From Candidatus Thorarchaeota archaeon (GTDB lineage: Archaea; Asgardarchaeota; Thorarchaeia; Thorarchaeales; Thorarchaeaceae): DNA of 64,000 nucleotides. Positions 6,277-21,310 of the stretch are shown here, one piece after another. The notes beneath the pieces are model-generated. The model saw only the letters and a list, made by a program, of their open reading frames with translations, was not told the DNA's origin and did no database searches. A program made the position numbers and the translations under genes. The stretch spans positions 1-64,000 of the forward strand of contig JBHLRP010000008.1 of NCBI GenBank assembly GCA_048882485.1, given 5' to 3'. Position 1 is the stretch's first letter. Each line of letters begins with the position of its first letter.

Positions 6277-6639
6277 TCAGTCGGATACCGCTTTCTCAAC
6301 TAGATCAAGCATGTGTCGTATTGTAACCGGCTTCAGACCAAACGAGCGTGCTCCCCCGTTTAGCGCCTGTTCACGTACATTGGCATCCGCACTGATGAAA
6401 ACGATCTTGGCACTTGGCTCGATTTCAAGTATGTCTTTCATTGCATCTAGGCCGTCACGGTTGGGCATTCTATGGTCTAGAATAATGACTTCCGGCTTGG
6501 GATTCATTTCTTTGTATTTCACAACGGCCTCTTCACCATCGAATGCGTCTGCGATTACCTGATGTCCCTTGATCGCAAAGACGTCTTTGTAGAGCCTGTG
6601 CAGAATGGCTTCGTCGTCGATGATGAATATGCTTACCAT
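6277..6639 (-). CDS. Single-domain CheY-like response regulator
   Basis: IIDDE, ILDHRMPNRDG, FISA and LKP motifs all intact. ATG start at 6639. Confidence 0.92.
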   Translation of the reverse strand: MVSIFIIDDEAILHRLYKDVFAIKGHQVIADAFDGEEAVVKYKEMNPKPEVIILDHRMPNRDGLDAMKDILEIEPSAKIVFISADANVREQALNGGARSFGLKPVTIRHMLDLVEKAVSD

Positions 6640-6714
6640 TGTGCTCGTGCCCACCTTTCGATGTCTTGAACTCTGTAGATGCACCCCTTTCCTCTCTCAG
6701 CATAAGGAACAGGG

Positions 6715-6839: not shown

Positions 6840-7800
6840 CGCAATATCGCTTTGTGGATTTCCACTCCAAATTAGACTATCATTGCGTTGTCAAATCGCA
6901 TGCTTGCCCATTTTCTAGCTATCCGCTTACTCTCAATTCTGCGCTCAGACCTTGCCGATATTTGGAAAGGATTTCCATTTTATCTAATTTATTTGTCATC
7001 GAAATAATTCAAGTTTTATCTATACTATTGTTCCGCATATGCAATAATATTATATTATATGATGGGGAATACCTAGAAACATACCTGAGAACAAAGGACA
7101 TACTTCCATCTGGCCTGATGTTATTTCTAGATCTGACCTTTGGCATTCTGTTGCTAGGGCATGATTTTCCTGTATTCACTTTTCGAATACACTAGTACAC
7201 TCTACCCTCTGATATGGTCGGAAGCTATACTCACTTATCGTGTACTACTACACTTTTCCGAGGATAATCAGGGTTATTTCGTTAACTTTTCTTGCCATAG
7301 ACAATATAACACGGTTTCTGAGTATACGTTGATATGGACAAGGACGACTTACTATGGAAATAAGCGCTCTGAGAATAGCAAATGAGGCCTTGTCTTCATG
7401 ACCTGATGTGAAATAGAACTCGATTGTAAATGCCGCATATGCCCGCATAATGGTATTAATATTTCCATCATGGGGTAATTATATAATATCAATTATATAG
7501 TGGAAAAAATCGTCTAATGTTTTAGGAAATAATTGCTTAACAAGTCACTCATAAAAGACATATGTCCATAAATCGAGGAACTGGTCGAAAATTAGAGGAT
7601 TTCATTATGTGATGATGAGATTGCATCGTTGAAGAAGAACCGTCTGCTGGCTACGTGGTCTGCGTTATCCAATAGGATTTGAATATCCAGGTGATCAGAG
7701 AATTTGCTCTTACTCTTGGAAAGCATATTCATCAGTACACACTGGATGATGATTGATTATATGCAGTAAATGCTAGCTGGCATGTATTACAAGGTCCAAA
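6840..7800. other. Long AT-rich non-coding region, candidate replication origin
   Basis: No credible ORF. TTTCCA/TGGAAA at 6859, 6963, 6972, 7355, 7462, 7501 and 7717; very AT-rich core ~7450-7560. Confidence 0.35.
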
Positions 7801-7821
7801 ATAGTATCTTTCATACAATAG

Positions 7822-8092
7822 TTGCGTACACGTTTGGCCTTAGTGCCGTTGTGCGAATCACTGGTATTCTCTCCTACTCTCTCTCCGAAACAGGAAGTGC
7901 GGGACAAGGCAAAAGCTTACTCCAACAACTCCCCGAATCCTAGCGTGTACCGACAAGTACTCTTGACAGGAGTGCTCCAATCAACCTGCCCTGGCAAAAC
8001 ACAACCCCAATCCGTCGAAGCGGTCGGTACACGCTTACTTCCTCTCAAGACGGTTCTCGTTGAGGCCGACGTTTACTAACTCTAGTTGGTAC
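7822..8092 (+). ncRNA. Putative structured non-coding RNA of unknown class
   Basis: 13-bp perfect helix 7942-7954/8023-8035 abutting an 8-bp helix 7892-7899/8036-8043. Several internal and flanking hairpins whose mismatches are G-U on the + strand. Confidence 0.55.
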
Positions 8093-8152
8093 ACATATGC
8101 ACTCCCATCGGTAATTGTTATCAAGGAGGAGGCTTGTTCATCTTTTCTTGAG

Positions 8153-9352
8153 ATGGGATACGATACCGACGTGCTCATCATAGGAGCAGGGCCCGCTGGT
8201 CTTTCAGCTGCAAAACAGCTAGCTCTGATGGACATGCCTTACATTCTGATACATCGCGAGAGAAGTCCTTGCGAAAGGAAGGCTTGTGGTGGATTCATTC
8301 CTCTTAGGGCGCTTGAGAGATTCGAGATTGAAGATTTTCCGGGTGCATATCCTGTTGAAGCTGTAAGGATGAGATTTCCAGGCACTGATTCCTCAGTTGT
8401 AGAGTTCGATGAGAAAGTTGGCGTCAATGCAACCAGATATGACATAGGCCAAGCTCAATTGTCGTCTATCAGCCAAGCAGACAGCATTTGGTCAGAAACC
8501 GAAGCGGTCCGAGTTGATATCACAGCAGATAGATGTGTTACAATGATTGTCAGAGATGAGCAAACTGAAGAAACCTCATCACAGATAGTAATCGATGCCA
8601 GCGGAGTTAATCCGTTTACACAACGTTTGGTGCCAATAAGAGATAGGATTCCTAACACATCAATGGGATACGCGGTCCAGTATCAGATGCGACTCGGATC
8701 TGATTCTGAACAATTGAGAGGAGTTAATGATTTCATCTATGGTAGTGAATACTCACCCGGTGGATATGCGTGGGCTTTTCCCAGGGGCAAGGAGGTTGCC
8801 GTTGGTATAGGCGGCCTGATAGAACGTGTTCGGAACAGTAAGAAACGAGTCAAGGATTATCTCGATGATATGCTAGCTTCATTTGAACCATTGAAGAGTG
8901 AACTGGAAAATGCAACGGTGTTTAGGCAGGAGTCTGCACTTATGCCCCTCGCTGGAATTGTCCGTCCATCATACTCCCAACGGCTTATGCTAGCTGGTGA
9001 TGCAGCGGGCCATTGTTCTCCAATTACAGGTGAAGGAATTTTCTATTCTATGATTGCAGGAGAATTAGCTGCTATGACAGCTCATGAGGCAATTAGGAGA
9101 GATGACATCACTGCAAATCAGCTAGCAAGATACGAGAAAAGATGGATTCAAGAATTTGGCTCAGATCTGAAATGGGGGTTGTGGCTTCAAAGGAGGTTCT
9201 TGAGAGAGGGCTCAACGTCGATGGGATCGGTCTTTCTTCGGTCAAAGAGATCGCAAAGATTGATTGCTGAGATGCTCCTTGGGAAGAGATCGGTGAGGGG
9301 TACGATAGTGCGCGCAATACCAAGCTACATCCGTTCAAAGCTTGGAGTCTAG
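8153..9352 (+). CDS. Geranylgeranyl reductase-family FAD-dependent oxidoreductase
   Basis: DVLIIGAGPAG, KACGG, GYAWAFP and AGDAAG..PITGEGI motifs. Start at ATG 8153. Confidence 0.9.
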   Translation: MGYDTDVLIIGAGPAGLSAAKQLALMDMPYILIHRERSPCERKACGGFIPLRALERFEIEDFPGAYPVEAVRMRFPGTDSSVVEFDEKVGVNATRYDIGQAQLSSISQADSIWSETEAVRVDITADRCVTMIVRDEQTEETSSQIVIDASGVNPFTQRLVPIRDRIPNTSMGYAVQYQMRLGSDSEQLRGVNDFIYGSEYSPGGYAWAFPRGKEVAVGIGGLIERVRNSKKRVKDYLDDMLASFEPLKSELENATVFRQESALMPLAGIVRPSYSQRLMLAGDAAGHCSPITGEGIFYSMIAGELAAMTAHEAIRRDDITANQLARYEKRWIQEFGSDLKWGLWLQRRFLREGSTSMGSVFLRSKRSQRLIAEMLLGKRSVRGTIVRAIPSYIRSKLGV

Positions 9353-16234: not shown

Positions 16235-18760
16235 ATGAAAAAAGCCGCTACACTGCTGTTAATTGTGCTTCTTATTGCTCCCTTATTTGTTGCTGTAGCT
16301 TCACCAGATGCTGCAGAAGGGATAGATTCGATGCAAGACATAGAACCAACGATTTCTTTCAAGGAATCGATGATGGCTTCCCGGAATATTAGGGTAGCAA
16401 TCTATGATGAGTCCAACACCACCGTACCATTGAAGTCAGATGCCCTTGGTCTGACAAACAATATCACCGAAGTAGCCGCAATACTCGTGGGTGCTGGCTA
16501 TCAAGTCACTTTAATCACGACTGATGATATACTTGACTACAGGTTGACGACGGCATCCTTTGATGTGTTCATTATGGTCAACAATCTTCCTAGAGAGAGT
16601 ATCTCCAAGCTTGTGAAGGACTTCTGGCTGGGTGGCGGAGGGCTATTGACCTTCCACGGCGCGCTGAGTTATCTGTATTATGAAAGCATCATCATCCCCA
16701 GCTGGGACGTTGATGTTGGAGATGGAATGTATTGGGGATACTTCTCAAGTGACAATCAAAATGTGACAGCGCGTCATTCGACAATGAAAGACTATAATGT
16801 TGGTGATGTTCTTACTGAACGAAACAACCTTTGGGCCACTGCATGGGAAAGAGTATTGATAGGCACATTAGGATTTGAAGCCGAAGCAACAAAAGCTGAT
16901 GATTTCACGATCCTGATGAACAATGGGAATACAGCTGACTTCATCACCGCATTCTCAATGGATAATACTCATGAAGGCGGTAGAGTAGTTCATCTTCCTG
17001 GGGATGGATACTCGATTCCTGCGGCGTTTGAAAGCATCATCACTGACTCAATACATTGGCTTGCTCCAAGGCCAAAGGCAAAGATTCTCTATGATCTTTC
17101 ACATGACCCATGGCTCACTGCAGATCCATGGGATGGTGGCTATGAGGCATTCTACTTCTCACCTTGGAGAACCGGGCTAGTTAATCGATCATATACTGTC
17201 GACAAACTCCATCCATCCTCCGAAGGCAATCTCACGTATCCAAATCTAGAGCCGTATGATATGCTTGTGGTCAATCAACCAATGGCAGACTATACGCAAG
17301 CTGAGGTTCAAGCTGTCGAACAATGGGTTCAGGATGGGGGTGCCCTATTTGTTGTTGGAGATAATGCGGGAGTTCCTGATAACTATCGTCTGAATGAGCT
17401 TATCGAGCCATTCGGTATACAGTTCAATCACACGCTTCCTACCTATGTTGGAGTCTTCTCAGACTATGACATGCATCCCACAACTGAGGGTTGTGCTTCC
17501 CTTTCATATATCGGCTCAGCAAGATTGAACATATCTGGTGCTGCATATCCAATTTGGAGGTACACGCCTGGAGATATTGCTGTAGCTGCAACTGAATACG
17601 GTCATGGTCGAGTGCTTGTAATCCCTGATGCAAATTCAGTTGTCGATGCGTGGATTGGGGATGCGAATAATTTCCATTTTGCTATGAATATAGTGAATTG
17701 GCTTACTTCCTATGATGCCAAGACTCTTGTCTACGTCGACACTGCATCGCATGATCCAAATACACTCCTTTATCGAGGACCAGTTGCTCAAGCACTGAAT
17801 GATATTGGATTGAAGTTCCTGCTGACATATTCGTACACCTACTTCAATTTGAGTCTTCATTCCGAGAATTGGGAACTGGTAGTCTACGACAACATCAATT
17901 ATGGCACTTCTATTATCTTTGAAGAGATACTAGATTACGTTCGTGCAGGTGGCAGGATGGTCTTCAGCACATGGACCTATAGTAATGCTCTGGCAACAGA
18001 GTTGAATAACTACATCGGATTTGAATATGCAGGCAATTATTTCAGTCCTCAACCACCAATCCATGTCTGGAATCCCGGAGCTGGCATATTCAATAATCCA
18101 AATCCGTACGGAGCAGGAAATATCAGCTCGAATATTGACTATTCCTTTGGATTGGAGTGTCAGAATCTGACAGTGTTTGACAACGCCACTGCTTTGGCAG
18201 GACTTGATTCCACAACATCAACGACTAATGCGAGTATCGTTTTGGGTGCTGGTGGAAGAGTCATTGTAAATGGCATGCTACTATCAATGTACATGAATGA
18301 CACAGATGACTCGACCTATCCTGATGCAGTTGAGATTTGGGAGAATGAGATTGCGTTTCTCATGAAACCAAGCATAGATGCTCCTGCTGACGTTGAATAC
18401 ATAGAGGGGACTACGGGCAATCTCATCGCGTGGCATCCTGACAGCCTCATCCCATTCAAATATGAGGTTGAGATGGATGGCGTTCCTGATGGAACTGAAC
18501 CATGGGATGGCGGGCCGGTTTCGTATGGCATTGATGGACTCGCGAATGGAACCTACGTGTTCACAATCACCATCTTTGATCGGGCAGGCTACACTGCAGT
18601 GGATGAAGTCACTGTGACTGTACTTGAGATTCCCCCGACAACTACCGAACCACCCCCAATGCCTCCATTGGATACAACCATATTGATTATCATTGCAGCT
18701 GCTGCTGGAGTTGTGATAATAATCATGTTGATAGTCATGCGGAAGCGCGGAGCAGAGTAA
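16235..18760 (+). CDS. Cell-surface protein: signal peptide, three GATase-like (DUF4350/GIFT) domains, Ig-like domain, C-terminal TM anchor
   Basis: MKK plus hydrophobic signal; repeated GGGLL/GGAL/GGRM and GGRVV/GRVL motifs; Pro/Thr linker, TM and RKR tail; many NxS/T sequons. Confidence 0.85.
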   Translation: MKKAATLLLIVLLIAPLFVAVASPDAAEGIDSMQDIEPTISFKESMMASRNIRVAIYDESNTTVPLKSDALGLTNNITEVAAILVGAGYQVTLITTDDILDYRLTTASFDVFIMVNNLPRESISKLVKDFWLGGGGLLTFHGALSYLYYESIIIPSWDVDVGDGMYWGYFSSDNQNVTARHSTMKDYNVGDVLTERNNLWATAWERVLIGTLGFEAEATKADDFTILMNNGNTADFITAFSMDNTHEGGRVVHLPGDGYSIPAAFESIITDSIHWLAPRPKAKILYDLSHDPWLTADPWDGGYEAFYFSPWRTGLVNRSYTVDKLHPSSEGNLTYPNLEPYDMLVVNQPMADYTQAEVQAVEQWVQDGGALFVVGDNAGVPDNYRLNELIEPFGIQFNHTLPTYVGVFSDYDMHPTTEGCASLSYIGSARLNISGAAYPIWRYTPGDIAVAATEYGHGRVLVIPDANSVVDAWIGDANNFHFAMNIVNWLTSYDAKTLVYVDTASHDPNTLLYRGPVAQALNDIGLKFLLTYSYTYFNLSLHSENWELVVYDNINYGTSIIFEEILDYVRAGGRMVFSTWTYSNALATELNNYIGFEYAGNYFSPQPPIHVWNPGAGIFNNPNPYGAGNISSNIDYSFGLECQNLTVFDNATALAGLDSTTSTTNASIVLGAGGRVIVNGMLLSMYMNDTDDSTYPDAVEIWENEIAFLMKPSIDAPADVEYIEGTTGNLIAWHPDSLIPFKYEVEMDGVPDGTEPWDGGPVSYGIDGLANGTYVFTITIFDRAGYTAVDEVTVTVLEIPPTTTEPPPMPPLDTTILIIIAAAAGVVIIIMLIVMRKRGAE

Positions 18761-18770
18761 TTCTATTTTC

Positions 18771-18810
18771 GAAGCCCGGCTTTTCGGGCTTCATTTTATT
18801 CCTTTTTTTT
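18771..18810 (+). terminator. Hairpin plus T-tract terminator
   Basis: GAAGCCCG-gctttt-CGGGCTTC followed by ATTTTATTCCTTTTTTTT just after the stop codon. Confidence 0.7.
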
Positions 18811-18981
18811 GGTTCTTCATATGATGAATTGAGAACAATACAATCATAGAAAAGTGAAAAAGGACCACGATATTCAAGAATCCTGCTAATAGGGAGGCTG
18901 AATGCGCTGGCTAAGGGCAAATCTGGCAAGGTTTCCAAAAGAGCCAAGTCGGATGAGGCCTATCTGCAGCAGTTTTGTGAA

Positions 18982-19815
18982 TTGAGTAGACGTGCAGCAA
19001 TTGACCAGCTATCGGAATTGATGAAGGGTTATTGGACTGATAAGATTGAATATCCCCTTCATCGCTTATGCAAGATAATCGAGAAGAAATGGAAAAAGTC
19101 TGGCAATGAAGAAGAAGCTATTGAACAGCTAATGCTTGTTCGGGACGGTATCTTTGGAGCTCTTGACATGCTCTCCCTTTCATTGCCCCTCGAAGTAGGC
19201 ACAGACACCATCATTCAGAAGCTCATAAAGGGAACAGACTGGGATGACGGCAGGAAGCGCGTTCGAAGTGAATGCGCACAAATCATCAGTGGCATGATAT
19301 CAGCAAGGAAAATTGCTCATGTTATCCCTTCAGGATTAGAACGAGACGGTTTCACCTTTCTTTTGCCTGAACTGAGAGAAGCCCTGTTGAAAGATGTCAA
19401 AAAGGCTGAGCTAAGAGCCCGAAAGGGTAGTGTAAGCTTGGTTGGGCTTTCACGTTCAGTTCTTGGAAGGCGACTGCTGAGAGAACAAATGATTGCGGAT
19501 ACCAAGATTCCTGAAGAAGATCCGCGACTGACACCTTTGATGGAAGCATATGACAAGCTTCTAGTTGAGGTGGAATTAGATCAACAGGTCGCATTCCCAT
19601 TAGAAACTCATCAGGTGACTTTCAACGGGAAAGTAGCGGAAGACGAAATGGAATACATGGATTCGGCAGCTGGTGCTGAGCCCGCAAGTGTTCAGTCTGA
19701 GTTAACGGAATACATCACAAGCCACAAAGAGGTAAAGCGCAAGCCGAAGAAAAAGGCAGGGAAGAAGCCTAAGAAATCATCAGGCCGCAAGAAGAAGAAG
19801 AAGGGAGGAGCATGA
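18982..19815 (+). CDS. Hypothetical helical protein with Lys-rich C-terminal tail
   Basis: 277-aa ORF ending KRKPKKKAGKKPKKSSGRKKKKKGGA; 1 nt upstream of the next gene. Confidence 0.8.
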   Translation: MSRRAAIDQLSELMKGYWTDKIEYPLHRLCKIIEKKWKKSGNEEEAIEQLMLVRDGIFGALDMLSLSLPLEVGTDTIIQKLIKGTDWDDGRKRVRSECAQIISGMISARKIAHVIPSGLERDGFTFLLPELREALLKDVKKAELRARKGSVSLVGLSRSVLGRRLLREQMIADTKIPEEDPRLTPLMEAYDKLLVEVELDQQVAFPLETHQVTFNGKVAEDEMEYMDSAAGAEPASVQSELTEYITSHKEVKRKPKKKAGKKPKKSSGRKKKKKGGA

Positions 19816-19816
19816 A

Positions 19817-21310
19817 ATGTCCCCTCTTTCTGCCGATTTCCTAGCCCTCGAAACTAAGAAGCTTGCAGAAATGCGAAAAGCCGCATGGAATCTTGAATCA
19901 GCCAAACCTGAGCTCATGTATGAAGCAGTCCAGACTCTCACAATGTACAGTGTCAATCGAACTCTTCTTCCATTTGTGATGCATCATTTACTGGCTGATG
20001 ATATCTTTGTGCGGAAGATTCTCTTCAGGACAGCTGGCAGGAATATCTATGGTGAGTATATTCCCGAATTCTTCTCTCATTTGCCAAATCTGCCGCCAGC
20101 AGAGGTAGCTCAAGTACTTCAAAGCGTCAAAGAAGCCTTCAGGGAAAATGGACCCCCATTAGAAAAGCCGGAGTTGAAAAGATGGATTACCGCATTGGAG
20201 AAACTGGGTCGTGAACACCAACCCGGTATCGTTGAGATCATGGCTACACTCGGAAACTATGGATATCGATGGGTAACCAAGCTAATTAGAAATGACCTAG
20301 AGGGCTTGAATATAGGTGCAATTGCTAGCATCAGGGAATTTCCTGAGAAGCATAGGGCTGCAATTGTGCGGCTCCTCTGTGAAGAAGCCTCTCACCGAAA
20401 GCCAGACTTATTGACATACATCGCAGGAGTCACTGATTCAAAAACCGCTAGATTCCTGAAGTCTTTCCTGTCAGCTGGGAATTGGAAAGATCGGAAAGAG
20501 GTTGCTGAAGCTGTGGGTCGTGTGGGAATTACCTCCGCATCGGGTCTTGTGAGAGACCTTCTGAATGATCCTGATTGGAGAGTCAAACAAGCTCTAGCTG
20601 ACAATATCGATGTATCTAAATCAAAGCTTTCAAGCCTACTTAGAATAATGGAGATTCTTGTTGCAGATTCTCACACCAGGGTGAAACGTTCAGCGGGGAG
20701 AACACTACTCAGAATGGGGCTAAAGCCATGTATGGGTGTTAGTCTAAACGCCCAACGCGACAAGCTGATGAAACGATTTAGAGGCCAACTGTTGAAAGCG
20801 GCACCATTGAACAAGGAGATCGATTCAACCTGGTTGGGTGTTGATCTATCCGGAGAGAGTCCCTTCCCATCTAGTGCTCCCGAAGACGCCCCAGATTCAG
20901 CCAAACCGCAACCAGTGGGACTTGGCGATCTTGCATCAGCCTTGTCAACAAGGAAGGCCGAATCTACAAGTCCAGAAAGCGAGGTAGACCTCCGAACAGC
21001 GCTGCTCAAGAAGATGTTGGAGTCTAAAGAATTAGCAGATGCATCTGCGGCAATTGCAGAACCTACAACTAGCGACGCCTCGAAGATAGATCAAGACCTC
21101 CCTCCACCTGCGCGATTCCTAGCACTAATGGATGAACTATCATCGACTCTTGGCAAAGCCCTTCCAGTCATGGTGATGAAGGTAAAGGCTCCGGAAATTG
21201 AGTTATCGTCTGAAGAGTTTGATGAGGTACTTCGTCAGTTAGTGAAAGAAGGCACAGTCTACATGGTTGATGAGGATACTGTACGGCGAGCAGACATAAT
21301 GACCGAATAG
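19817..21310 (+). CDS. HEAT-repeat protein with disordered linker and C-terminal winged helix
   Basis: WKDRKEVAEAVG, LLNDPDWRVKQALA, LVADSHTRVKRSA; terminal EEFDEVLRQLVKEGTVYMVDEDTVR. Confidence 0.8.
   Translation: MSPLSADFLALETKKLAEMRKAAWNLESAKPELMYEAVQTLTMYSVNRTLLPFVMHHLLADDIFVRKILFRTAGRNIYGEYIPEFFSHLPNLPPAEVAQVLQSVKEAFRENGPPLEKPELKRWITALEKLGREHQPGIVEIMATLGNYGYRWVTKLIRNDLEGLNIGAIASIREFPEKHRAAIVRLLCEEASHRKPDLLTYIAGVTDSKTARFLKSFLSAGNWKDRKEVAEAVGRVGITSASGLVRDLLNDPDWRVKQALADNIDVSKSKLSSLLRIMEILVADSHTRVKRSAGRTLLRMGLKPCMGVSLNAQRDKLMKRFRGQLLKAAPLNKEIDSTWLGVDLSGESPFPSSAPEDAPDSAKPQPVGLGDLASALSTRKAESTSPESEVDLRTALLKKMLESKELADASAAIAEPTTSDASKIDQDLPPPARFLALMDELSSTLGKALPVMVMKVKAPEIELSSEEFDEVLRQLVKEGTVYMVDEDTVRRADIMTE

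Follow-up and report, generated by a model that had tools for sequence, protein, structure and literature searches.

In small RNAs of the CsrB/RsmZ type, a repeated short motif sequesters several copies of one protein. On the DNA side, Ss-LrpB of Sulfolobus is served by three regularly spaced operator boxes. To our knowledge, cis- or trans-acting structured RNAs of archaea are few in general, and we know of no described element that combines repeats like those of a sponge small RNA with the phasing of an operator. A search of the literature found neither an RNA of such a kind in Thorarchaeota or Asgard archaea nor the sequence box described below as a known binding site.

The element considered here lies in a 64,000-nt stretch of Candidatus Thorarchaeota DNA (the window), at the 3' end of a 1.47-kb gap between a gene of the geranylgeranyl reductase (GGR) family (8153-9352, + strand) and, on the far side of the gap, a response-regulator gene (6277-6684, - strand). 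It is conserved, lineage-specific and outside known RNA families, and we regard it as very probably an RNA. That the + strand yields a functional RNA of one sort or another is, in our estimate, likely; this estimate comprises a stand-alone RNA, a leader of the GGR mRNA and, for the remainder, unspecified RNA readings. The first of these, a single-copy structured ncRNA gene of Thorarchaeota running from ~7815 to ~8100, with its own promoter and with boxes that would bind a putative factor, is given a little less than an even chance of being correct.

Such an RNA would resemble CsrB/RsmZ in being an ncRNA of a few hundred nucleotides that carries several copies of one short motif. The motif, however, is a 9-nt, genome-rare sequence rather than GGA; its copies stand at fixed distances of 20 and 29 nt instead of in hairpin loops, one copy is locked with its inverted counterpart in a long helix, the binding protein is putative, and the host is an archaeon. 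Like cis-regulatory leaders and riboswitches, the element is non-coding, precedes a single metabolic gene on the same strand, and has a long-range helix around a structured interior. It differs from them in that the gene's own promoter lies 3' of the element, in that it outlasts both separation from the gene and loss of the gene, and in that no Rfam riboswitch model matches it; its interior varies from genus to genus, so that a common ligand pocket is not apparent. With arrays of the Ss-LrpB type the element shares several box copies at fixed centre-to-centre distances in a promoter region. In contrast to those arrays, its box is asymmetric, the copies are spread over ~300 bp (~900 bp in the source genus), two of them covary together with their flanks as a helix that contains G-U pairs, and no regulator gene is adjacent.

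The archaeal SRP and RNase P RNAs are like the element in size (250-330 nt), in being structured and in having their own promoters. However, both are found elsewhere in the same genome, and neither model matches the element: the genome's only match to RF01857 (SRP RNA) is at C58:5972-6282 (90.3 bits) and its only match to RF00373 (RNase P RNA) at C110:45-382 (162.7 bits), each outside the window. The sequence-only reading had described a base-paired RNA of no recognisable class that lacked SRP, RNase P, tRNA and clear C/D or H/ACA signatures, and searches with databases and motifs bear this out for the SRP, RNase P, tRNA and C/D classes. Rfam gave 0 matches in the window at gathering thresholds, Rfam 15 none inside the element at E<=10, and the Rfam models 0 matches in six orthologous loci at E<=0.5. 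ARAGORN found no tRNA or tmRNA gene in the window, and neither a C box (RUGAUGA) nor a D box (CUGA) is present on the + strand of 7815-8100. The Rfam H/ACA models likewise yield no match to the element; ACA triplets occur in it.

The gene downstream encodes a 399-aa FAD-dependent reductase with Pfam GGR_cat and FAD-binding domains. GGR-family enzymes saturate isoprenoid chains in membrane lipids or quinones. Its product scores 177.7 bits against TIGR02032 (cut-off 158.8) and falls below the cut-off for every equivalog model. The source genome contains at least ten GGR-family matches, 8 of them above the TIGR02032 cut-off, and this reductase ranks eighth by score among ten; it is one divergent geranylgeranyl-reductase paralogue. 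The element with its boxes is found beside this paralogue only, and beside none of the genome's other GGR-family paralogues. Genes upstream of the element vary from genus to genus, and no conserved regulator gene was found beside the locus among the orthologous loci. In L021, L025, L028, L029 and L045, loci from several genera, a small convergent gene (~90-150 aa) that contains MLRRQGFYRVKNQE lies 3' of GGR; no such gene was found within 1.1 kb downstream of GGR in the source window. Within the element itself, an 85-aa ORF (7822-8079) was considered as a gene and rejected: it has no Pfam match, and its frame is broken in close relatives by indels of 1 and 20 nt.

The centre of the fold is a 13-bp helix, P1, whose arms at 7942-7954 and 8023-8035 are exact reverse complements, as had been noticed from the sequence. 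This is the sole 100% complementary, non-overlapping inverted repeat of at least 12 nt within 150 nt in the whole window. The 5' arm consists of a direct copy of the box, GCGTGTAC, with a 4-nt extension, and the 3' arm of the extension followed by an inverted box, GTACACGC. Inside P1, both hairpins that had been proposed, at 7956-7976 (9 bp, two U-G pairs, loop GAC; genus-specific) and at 8013-8022 (3 bp), are present and predicted by RNAalifold; the second shows one-sided changes only, and one of its pairs is broken in G015. The C/A-rich, G-poor segment between them (7977-8011), which had been described as unpaired and is predicted to be single-stranded, is conserved in relatives, and highly so within the genus. 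On the 5' side of P1 lie a small hairpin with a GGC/GCC core (7835-7848), retained by G011 and G015 and weaker in G005, and a CU-rich tract (7867-7886), at which a TTCTCTCCTCC-like polypyrimidine is conserved in g1 and g5. P1 is followed by a CU-rich tail (8036-8046), and a pyrimidine-rich tail is also present in g1 and in part of g5.

The outer parts of the originally proposed fold are of a different kind. A helix between 7892-7899 and 8036-8043 can indeed form in the source sequence (8 bp, one G-U pair), but it breaks in G015, has no counterpart in G004 and is confined to the source genome and its closest relatives, so that the multibranch model that it was to close is not conserved. The hairpin at 8051-8068 falls in a stretch (8045-8068) that is not conserved even within the genus, and just 3-5 bp of the hairpins at 8074-8091 and 7825-7853 are kept in relatives. 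The outer helix and the 8051-8068 hairpin were consequently rejected, being conserved in neither G015 nor G004. As a whole, the + strand of 7822-8092 nevertheless folds better than its composition would predict (-80.1 kcal/mol, z -2.50 against dinucleotide shuffles, 1 of 200 of which was as good), and the preference for the + strand that had been argued from the wobble pairs is seen here too: for the - strand, z is +0.39, and 122 of 200 shuffles do as well. Across 24 orthologues, z averages -2.11 for the + strand and -1.19 for the - strand, with the + strand giving the lower value in 17.

A search for homologues by BLAST finds the element in four same-genus genomes. Its core (7933-8033) is 92-100%, 86-90% and 76-94% identical to that of three of them, a level that most of the coding sequence beside it does not reach. 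With a covariance model built on the core, weak matches were obtained in G070, from another genus, and in G004, a divergent congener; both lie directly upstream of the orthologous reductase, and P1 is kept there through changes on both strands. A third match, in G048 (L014), is inside a coding region and without P1, and was taken as chance. The orthologous GGR gene is present in 67 of the 86 genomes searched.

Compensatory change in P1 is the main evidence for an RNA. In 32 orthologues, 93.5% of the cells in the P1 alignment are paired and 6 of the 12 pairs have changed on both sides; the covariation score is 0.257, as compared with 0.138 in shuffles (0 of 500 reach it), and pairing falls to 14-53% when the partner columns are slid as a control. 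P1 is a long-range helix of 12-14 bp. Beyond the box, its extension of 4-7 nt differs between lineages and matches within each genome, with a mean paired run of 3.57 within a genome versus 1.81 across genomes (0 of 20000 permutations), values that, like the shuffle statistics, overstate independence because the orthologues are related; compensatory events counted by eye are several, not dozens. The extension is weak or absent in g4, g9, g23 and g26. In one orthologue the compensation falls within the box itself (GCAUGUAC with GUACAUGC), and in the G078/G074/G075 group a U-A pair has become C-G, the third genome showing a C-A intermediate. Imperfect pairs in P1 are biased as had been claimed for the fold in general, with 11 G-U cells versus 3 A-C cells. 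Covariation also extends to hairpins: that at 7956-7976 shows a compensatory A-U to G-C change in G002 and a U-G to U-A change in G011, and in g5 both the 5' hairpin and an interior hairpin, P2 (loop GCUGGCC), show compensatory changes, neither of them containing a box. Between genera, the P1 interior differs in sequence, length (53-76 nt) and hairpins; the shared parts are P1 and the boxes.

The box is ~9 nt long, with the consensus ~ACGTKTACT, and the P1 arms are one direct and one inverted copy of it plus the lineage-specific extension, a construction that the sequence-only reading had missed. In nearly all genera, the 350 nt upstream of the GGR orthologue contain 5-9 copies in both orientations, at spacings of 20, 29 and 42 nt that are kept across genera. 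The common layout on the + strand begins with a distal promoter-like motif, an inverted box ~30 nt further on, the hairpin of the 5' side and the CU-rich tract. After these come the three direct boxes, 1 to 3, at distances of 20 and 29 nt, then 53-76 nt of interior and an inverted box, and the layout ends with a direct box d', 41-44 nt past the inverted box, and a proximal promoter-like motif.

In the source genome, the 5' inverted box GTACACG (7826-7832) is ~28 nt past the TATA-like motif, at the predicted, likely start of the transcript; GTACACG or GTAAACG is present 28-32 nt past the distal motif in g1, g3 and g5. Boxes 1 and 2 are degenerate in the source genome. The second, GCTTACTCC (7915-7923), lies 30 nt before box 3 and aligns with ACGTGTACT of g5 and g3, and its G004 counterpart, GCGTTTAC, lies 29 nt before box 3. 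Box 3 is the copy in the 5' arm of P1. Box d' (CGTTTAC, 8070-8076) follows the inverted box by 44 nt, and this distance is 41-44 nt in 38 cases from more than 10 genera, with a spacer that is neither conserved nor structured. A further inverted box, GTACAC (8089-8094), 18 nt past d', occurs in G000 (the source genome), G002, G005 and G011, that is, in 4 of 5 close same-genus genomes; G015 has the variant GTAAAC, and the box is absent from the divergent G004. Pairs of a direct and an inverted box ~20 nt apart, like that at 8070/8089, are also found in g6 and g28.

Three other pairings of the boxes were tried and rejected. A terminal stem joining d' to the inverted box on the 5' side would amount to self-pairing of the box, has uncompensated breaks in G072, G101 and all of g1, and is further opposed by the absence of d' in part of g5. 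An alternative helix between the 3' arm of P1 and d' has no covarying extension, usually contains a C-U mismatch and encloses an unstructured spacer of 35 nt. Pairing with inverted boxes in the GGR coding region (+83 and +267; g5, g3) fails as well: these boxes follow from conserved Tyr-Thr and Val-Asn-Val codons at which synonymous sites are variable, they are also present where the element is separated from GGR, and they are absent in g1.

The box is rare enough for its clustering to be specific. Its 7-mer form occurs 293 times in the 3.96-Mb source genome, and the only cluster of at least three boxes within 150 nt of each other is that at 7826-8076; at the element, 4 seven-mer boxes lie within 317 nt, where 0.023 are expected. 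GTAC (7876 occurrences) and ACGT (6084) are among the rarest palindromic tetramers of G000, as compared with 18,000-21,000 occurrences of CATG, AGCT and TGCA, and GTGTAC and GTACAC are ~2.5-fold under-represented there; this rarity, which may reflect restriction avoidance, makes the box cluster stand out more. In six genomes from six genera, the arrangement "inverted box, ~35 nt, direct box" is found at this locus and nowhere else, one copy in each genome, and the idea of a regulon was rejected, the box cluster and the inverted-box-to-d' pattern being confined to the element locus in these six genomes. On the - strand of C35:9620-9700, the AT-rich promoter region of a 163-aa membrane-protein gene has a pair of GTTTAC-N7-GTAAAC palindromes plus a single GTTTAC, spaced by 29 nt and lacking the CG that flanks the box; a related regulator may use it as an operator, or it may be unrelated.

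When one genome for each of 185,579 species was scanned with a three-box pattern, 25 matches were obtained. All but one are in archaeal MAGs (21 titled Thorarchaeota, 1 Promethearchaeota and 2 "uncultured archaeon"); the 25th, on a high-GC bacterial contig, was taken as chance, ~2 chance matches being expected by estimate. In 21 of the 25, GGR is directly 3' of the element and co-oriented with it. The same scan of metagenomes gave 32 loci, 19 with GGR downstream and 18 with the element on the same strand and directly upstream of it; a separate metagenome scan for an element of the g1 type found none. Of the 13 loci without GGR, L116 and L123 are Thor-like; among the other eleven, at least four have matches that overlap or occur twice and may be repeats with no relation to the element. 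L118:931-1347 and L133:312-723, short contigs without GGR on which the three-box pattern occurs twice, ~313 nt apart, probably represent a tandem repeat of some other organism, with no relation to the element. As judged from these sequence searches, the element occurs once per genome and is confined to one family of MAGs titled Thorarchaeota, in which it spans many genera.

Two promoter-like motifs bracket the element. The distal one, BRE/TATA-like, consists of GTATTACAAGG followed by CCAAAATAGTA (7784-7806) and is conserved across genera, the near-identical ATATTACAAGGTCCAATATAC being found at the same relative place in g1, g3 and g5. The proximal one, AATTGTTATCAAGG (8111-8124), precedes GGR; in most genera a related motif, GATTATTAGG, stands 35-45 nt 5' of the start codon. 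Both resemble the TATA regions of the tRNA, SRP RNA and RNase P RNA genes of the source genome. Among the genomes searched, the element is absent in g7 and g24. Since the proximal motif persists in g7 nonetheless, GGR probably starts from a promoter of its own, with a short leader; the motif is also kept where a gene has been inserted upstream.

The element can, moreover, be parted from GGR. It is intact in G080, where a 192-aa gene on the same strand has been inserted between it and the GGR promoter, in G074, where the two flank an opposite-strand gene of 172 aa, in G075 and L113, where a 420-aa secreted-protein gene has been inserted before GGR, and in G078, where 200 nt separate it from GGR. 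In L116 and L123, the element is intact, GGR has been deleted with no remnant found, and the downstream neighbour is kept (tblastx E 5e-24). P1 is still paired in all seven cases. That it remains intact despite gene insertions or loss of GGR speaks for a separable functional unit. Directly upstream of the element, one Thorarchaeota lineage has a tyrosine-recombinase-like gene (L097:545-1672, L113:2011-3111), and in this lineage a gene for a secreted beta-helix-like protein lies between the element and GGR; this arrangement suggests an integration event at the spot.

How, then, might this locus work? If the element were a long structured 5' leader of the GGR mRNA, a transcript from the distal promoter would read through the proximal promoter and act in cis, with or without a bound factor, the choice between P1 and pairing of its 3' arm with d' affecting RNA stability, translation or transcriptional interference. 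This reading, which we consider unlikely on balance, draws on the position of the element: strict adjacency and co-orientation with GGR hold at ~90% of the loci examined, which argues for a role in cis, the element is directly upstream of GGR on the same strand in 21 of 25 genome and 18 of 32 metagenome matches, and it is the upstream neighbours that differ between genera. The source genome has no T-run of at least four, and thus no oligo-T terminator, between P1 and the GGR promoter, so that read-through into GGR is possible and the element would then be a leader; and the two helices open to the 3' arm of P1, with box 3 or with d', are mutually exclusive. However, the 3' arm/d' pairing has the defects given above, and the conserved promoter-like motif 35-45 nt before the GGR start would give a near-leaderless mRNA. 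Nor is a leader expected to stay intact beyond an opposite-strand gene (G074) or where GGR is gone (L116, L123). For a riboswitch, an aptamer core should be conserved over the whole range, but what is shared consists of P1 and the boxes; the P1 interior varies, and no cross-genus core able to bind a ligand is left. The claim of a structured + strand ncRNA of no known class, tied to GGR, stands; of a stand-alone RNA and a leader, both of which the sequence-only reading had offered, the former is favoured somewhat by retention of the element after separation from GGR or after loss of GGR.

The boxes raise the further question of whether the DNA alone is functional, as an operator array of ACGTKTACT copies for a putative transcription factor dedicated to GGR, with any RNA being functionless. 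One hallmark of such an array is present at the locus, namely, a repeated motif at fixed spacings that overlaps promoter elements. The same central G/T degeneracy, which would break RNA pairs, is seen in both box orientations, and the spacers at the fixed 20-, 29- and 42-nt distances are unconserved and unstructured (mean fold z -0.19 and -0.40). Direct/inverted pairs 18-20 nt apart straddle the putative distal start site and, in g1, g6 and g28, lie just 5' of the proximal motif; in g4 there are perfect palindromes of 18 bp. These features fit protein sites on duplex DNA, and the spacings, the degeneracy and the palindromes do so better than they fit RNA. Boxes are also present 5' of the distal motif (7195, 7241 and 7735 in the source, -474 in g3), and the three in the source would be outside the RNA of the element because they are upstream of its putative promoter. 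The first two belong to a second conserved non-coding island (7165-7335), 86-96% identical to G005 and above its surroundings in this respect, which contains a hairpin GTATTC...GAATAC, two boxes 46 nt apart (inverted at 7195, direct at 7241) and, after a TATA-like CAATATAAC, the box variant GTATAC; the island, which lies in the neighbouring stretch that had been called oriC-like, may be another module of this system. Yet an array of DNA sites leaves unexplained the covarying P1 extension, the excess of G-U pairs, the covariation of 5' and interior hairpins free of boxes, and the stronger fold signal of the + strand. It is also opposed by the lack of a regulator gene conserved beside the locus, by a box geometry found nowhere else in six genomes, which gives no sign of autoregulation or of a regulon, and by retention of the element where GGR has gone, and we judge it more doubtful than a leader. 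Finally, the 13-bp inverted repeats could be recombination sites that flank a flipping segment, a notion to which we attach next to no probability. The repeats are perfect, their arms change together, and an integrase gene is present upstream in L097 and L113. However, the segment measures just 53-76 bp, differences between the arms are transitions that produce G-U pairs instead of identity, and the integrase is absent from nearly all loci. An invertible switch was rejected because a single orientation is seen throughout the orthologues (the loop GCTGGCC points the same way in 12 of 12) and the integrase is found at two loci only.

The stand-alone ncRNA gene is our best reading. An RNA of ~230-290 nt would be transcribed from the + strand under the BRE/TATA-like promoter at 7784-7806, with ends that are predicted from the positions of the flanking motifs. 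Its 5' hairpin and CU-rich tract would be followed by three phased direct copies of ACGUKUACU, an order supported by the comparison of genera. The same comparison shows the third direct copy to be the 5' arm of P1 and an inverted copy to be its 3' arm, with P1 clamping a lineage-variable interior of one or two hairpins. The exposed boxes may be recognition sites of a sequence-specific factor, and P1 would hide one of them. Because boxes bracket both promoter-like motifs in the DNA, the same factor could plausibly also govern how both this RNA and the GGR paralogue are transcribed, the promoter of the latter starting where the element stops. Because it survives gene insertions before GGR and the loss of GGR, the RNA would be a separable unit, not a mere 5' UTR.

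It is conceivable, and in our view improbable, that one factor reads the box in both DNA, at the two promoter-like motifs and within the body of the RNA gene, and RNA, such that the transcript titrates the regulator of its own gene and of GGR. The resulting feedback loop would be formally like that of TFIIIA with the 5S gene and 5S rRNA; if true, an Asgard archaeon would have a TFIIIA-like loop that controls a gene for isoprenoid saturation. The presence of covarying helices, which are RNA-like, and of phased boxes, which are DNA-like, in one element is unusual in itself.

The element is probably a new regulatory RNA of putative function. It offers a well-delimited, testable candidate: a helix supported by covariation, a rare and specific box, and a position at one of ten GGR paralogues. 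Should it be a protein-binding RNA, the box would be a direct bait for its partner. If the element controls GGR, it would provide a first handle on the regulation of lipid chemistry in a relative of the eukaryotic ancestor.
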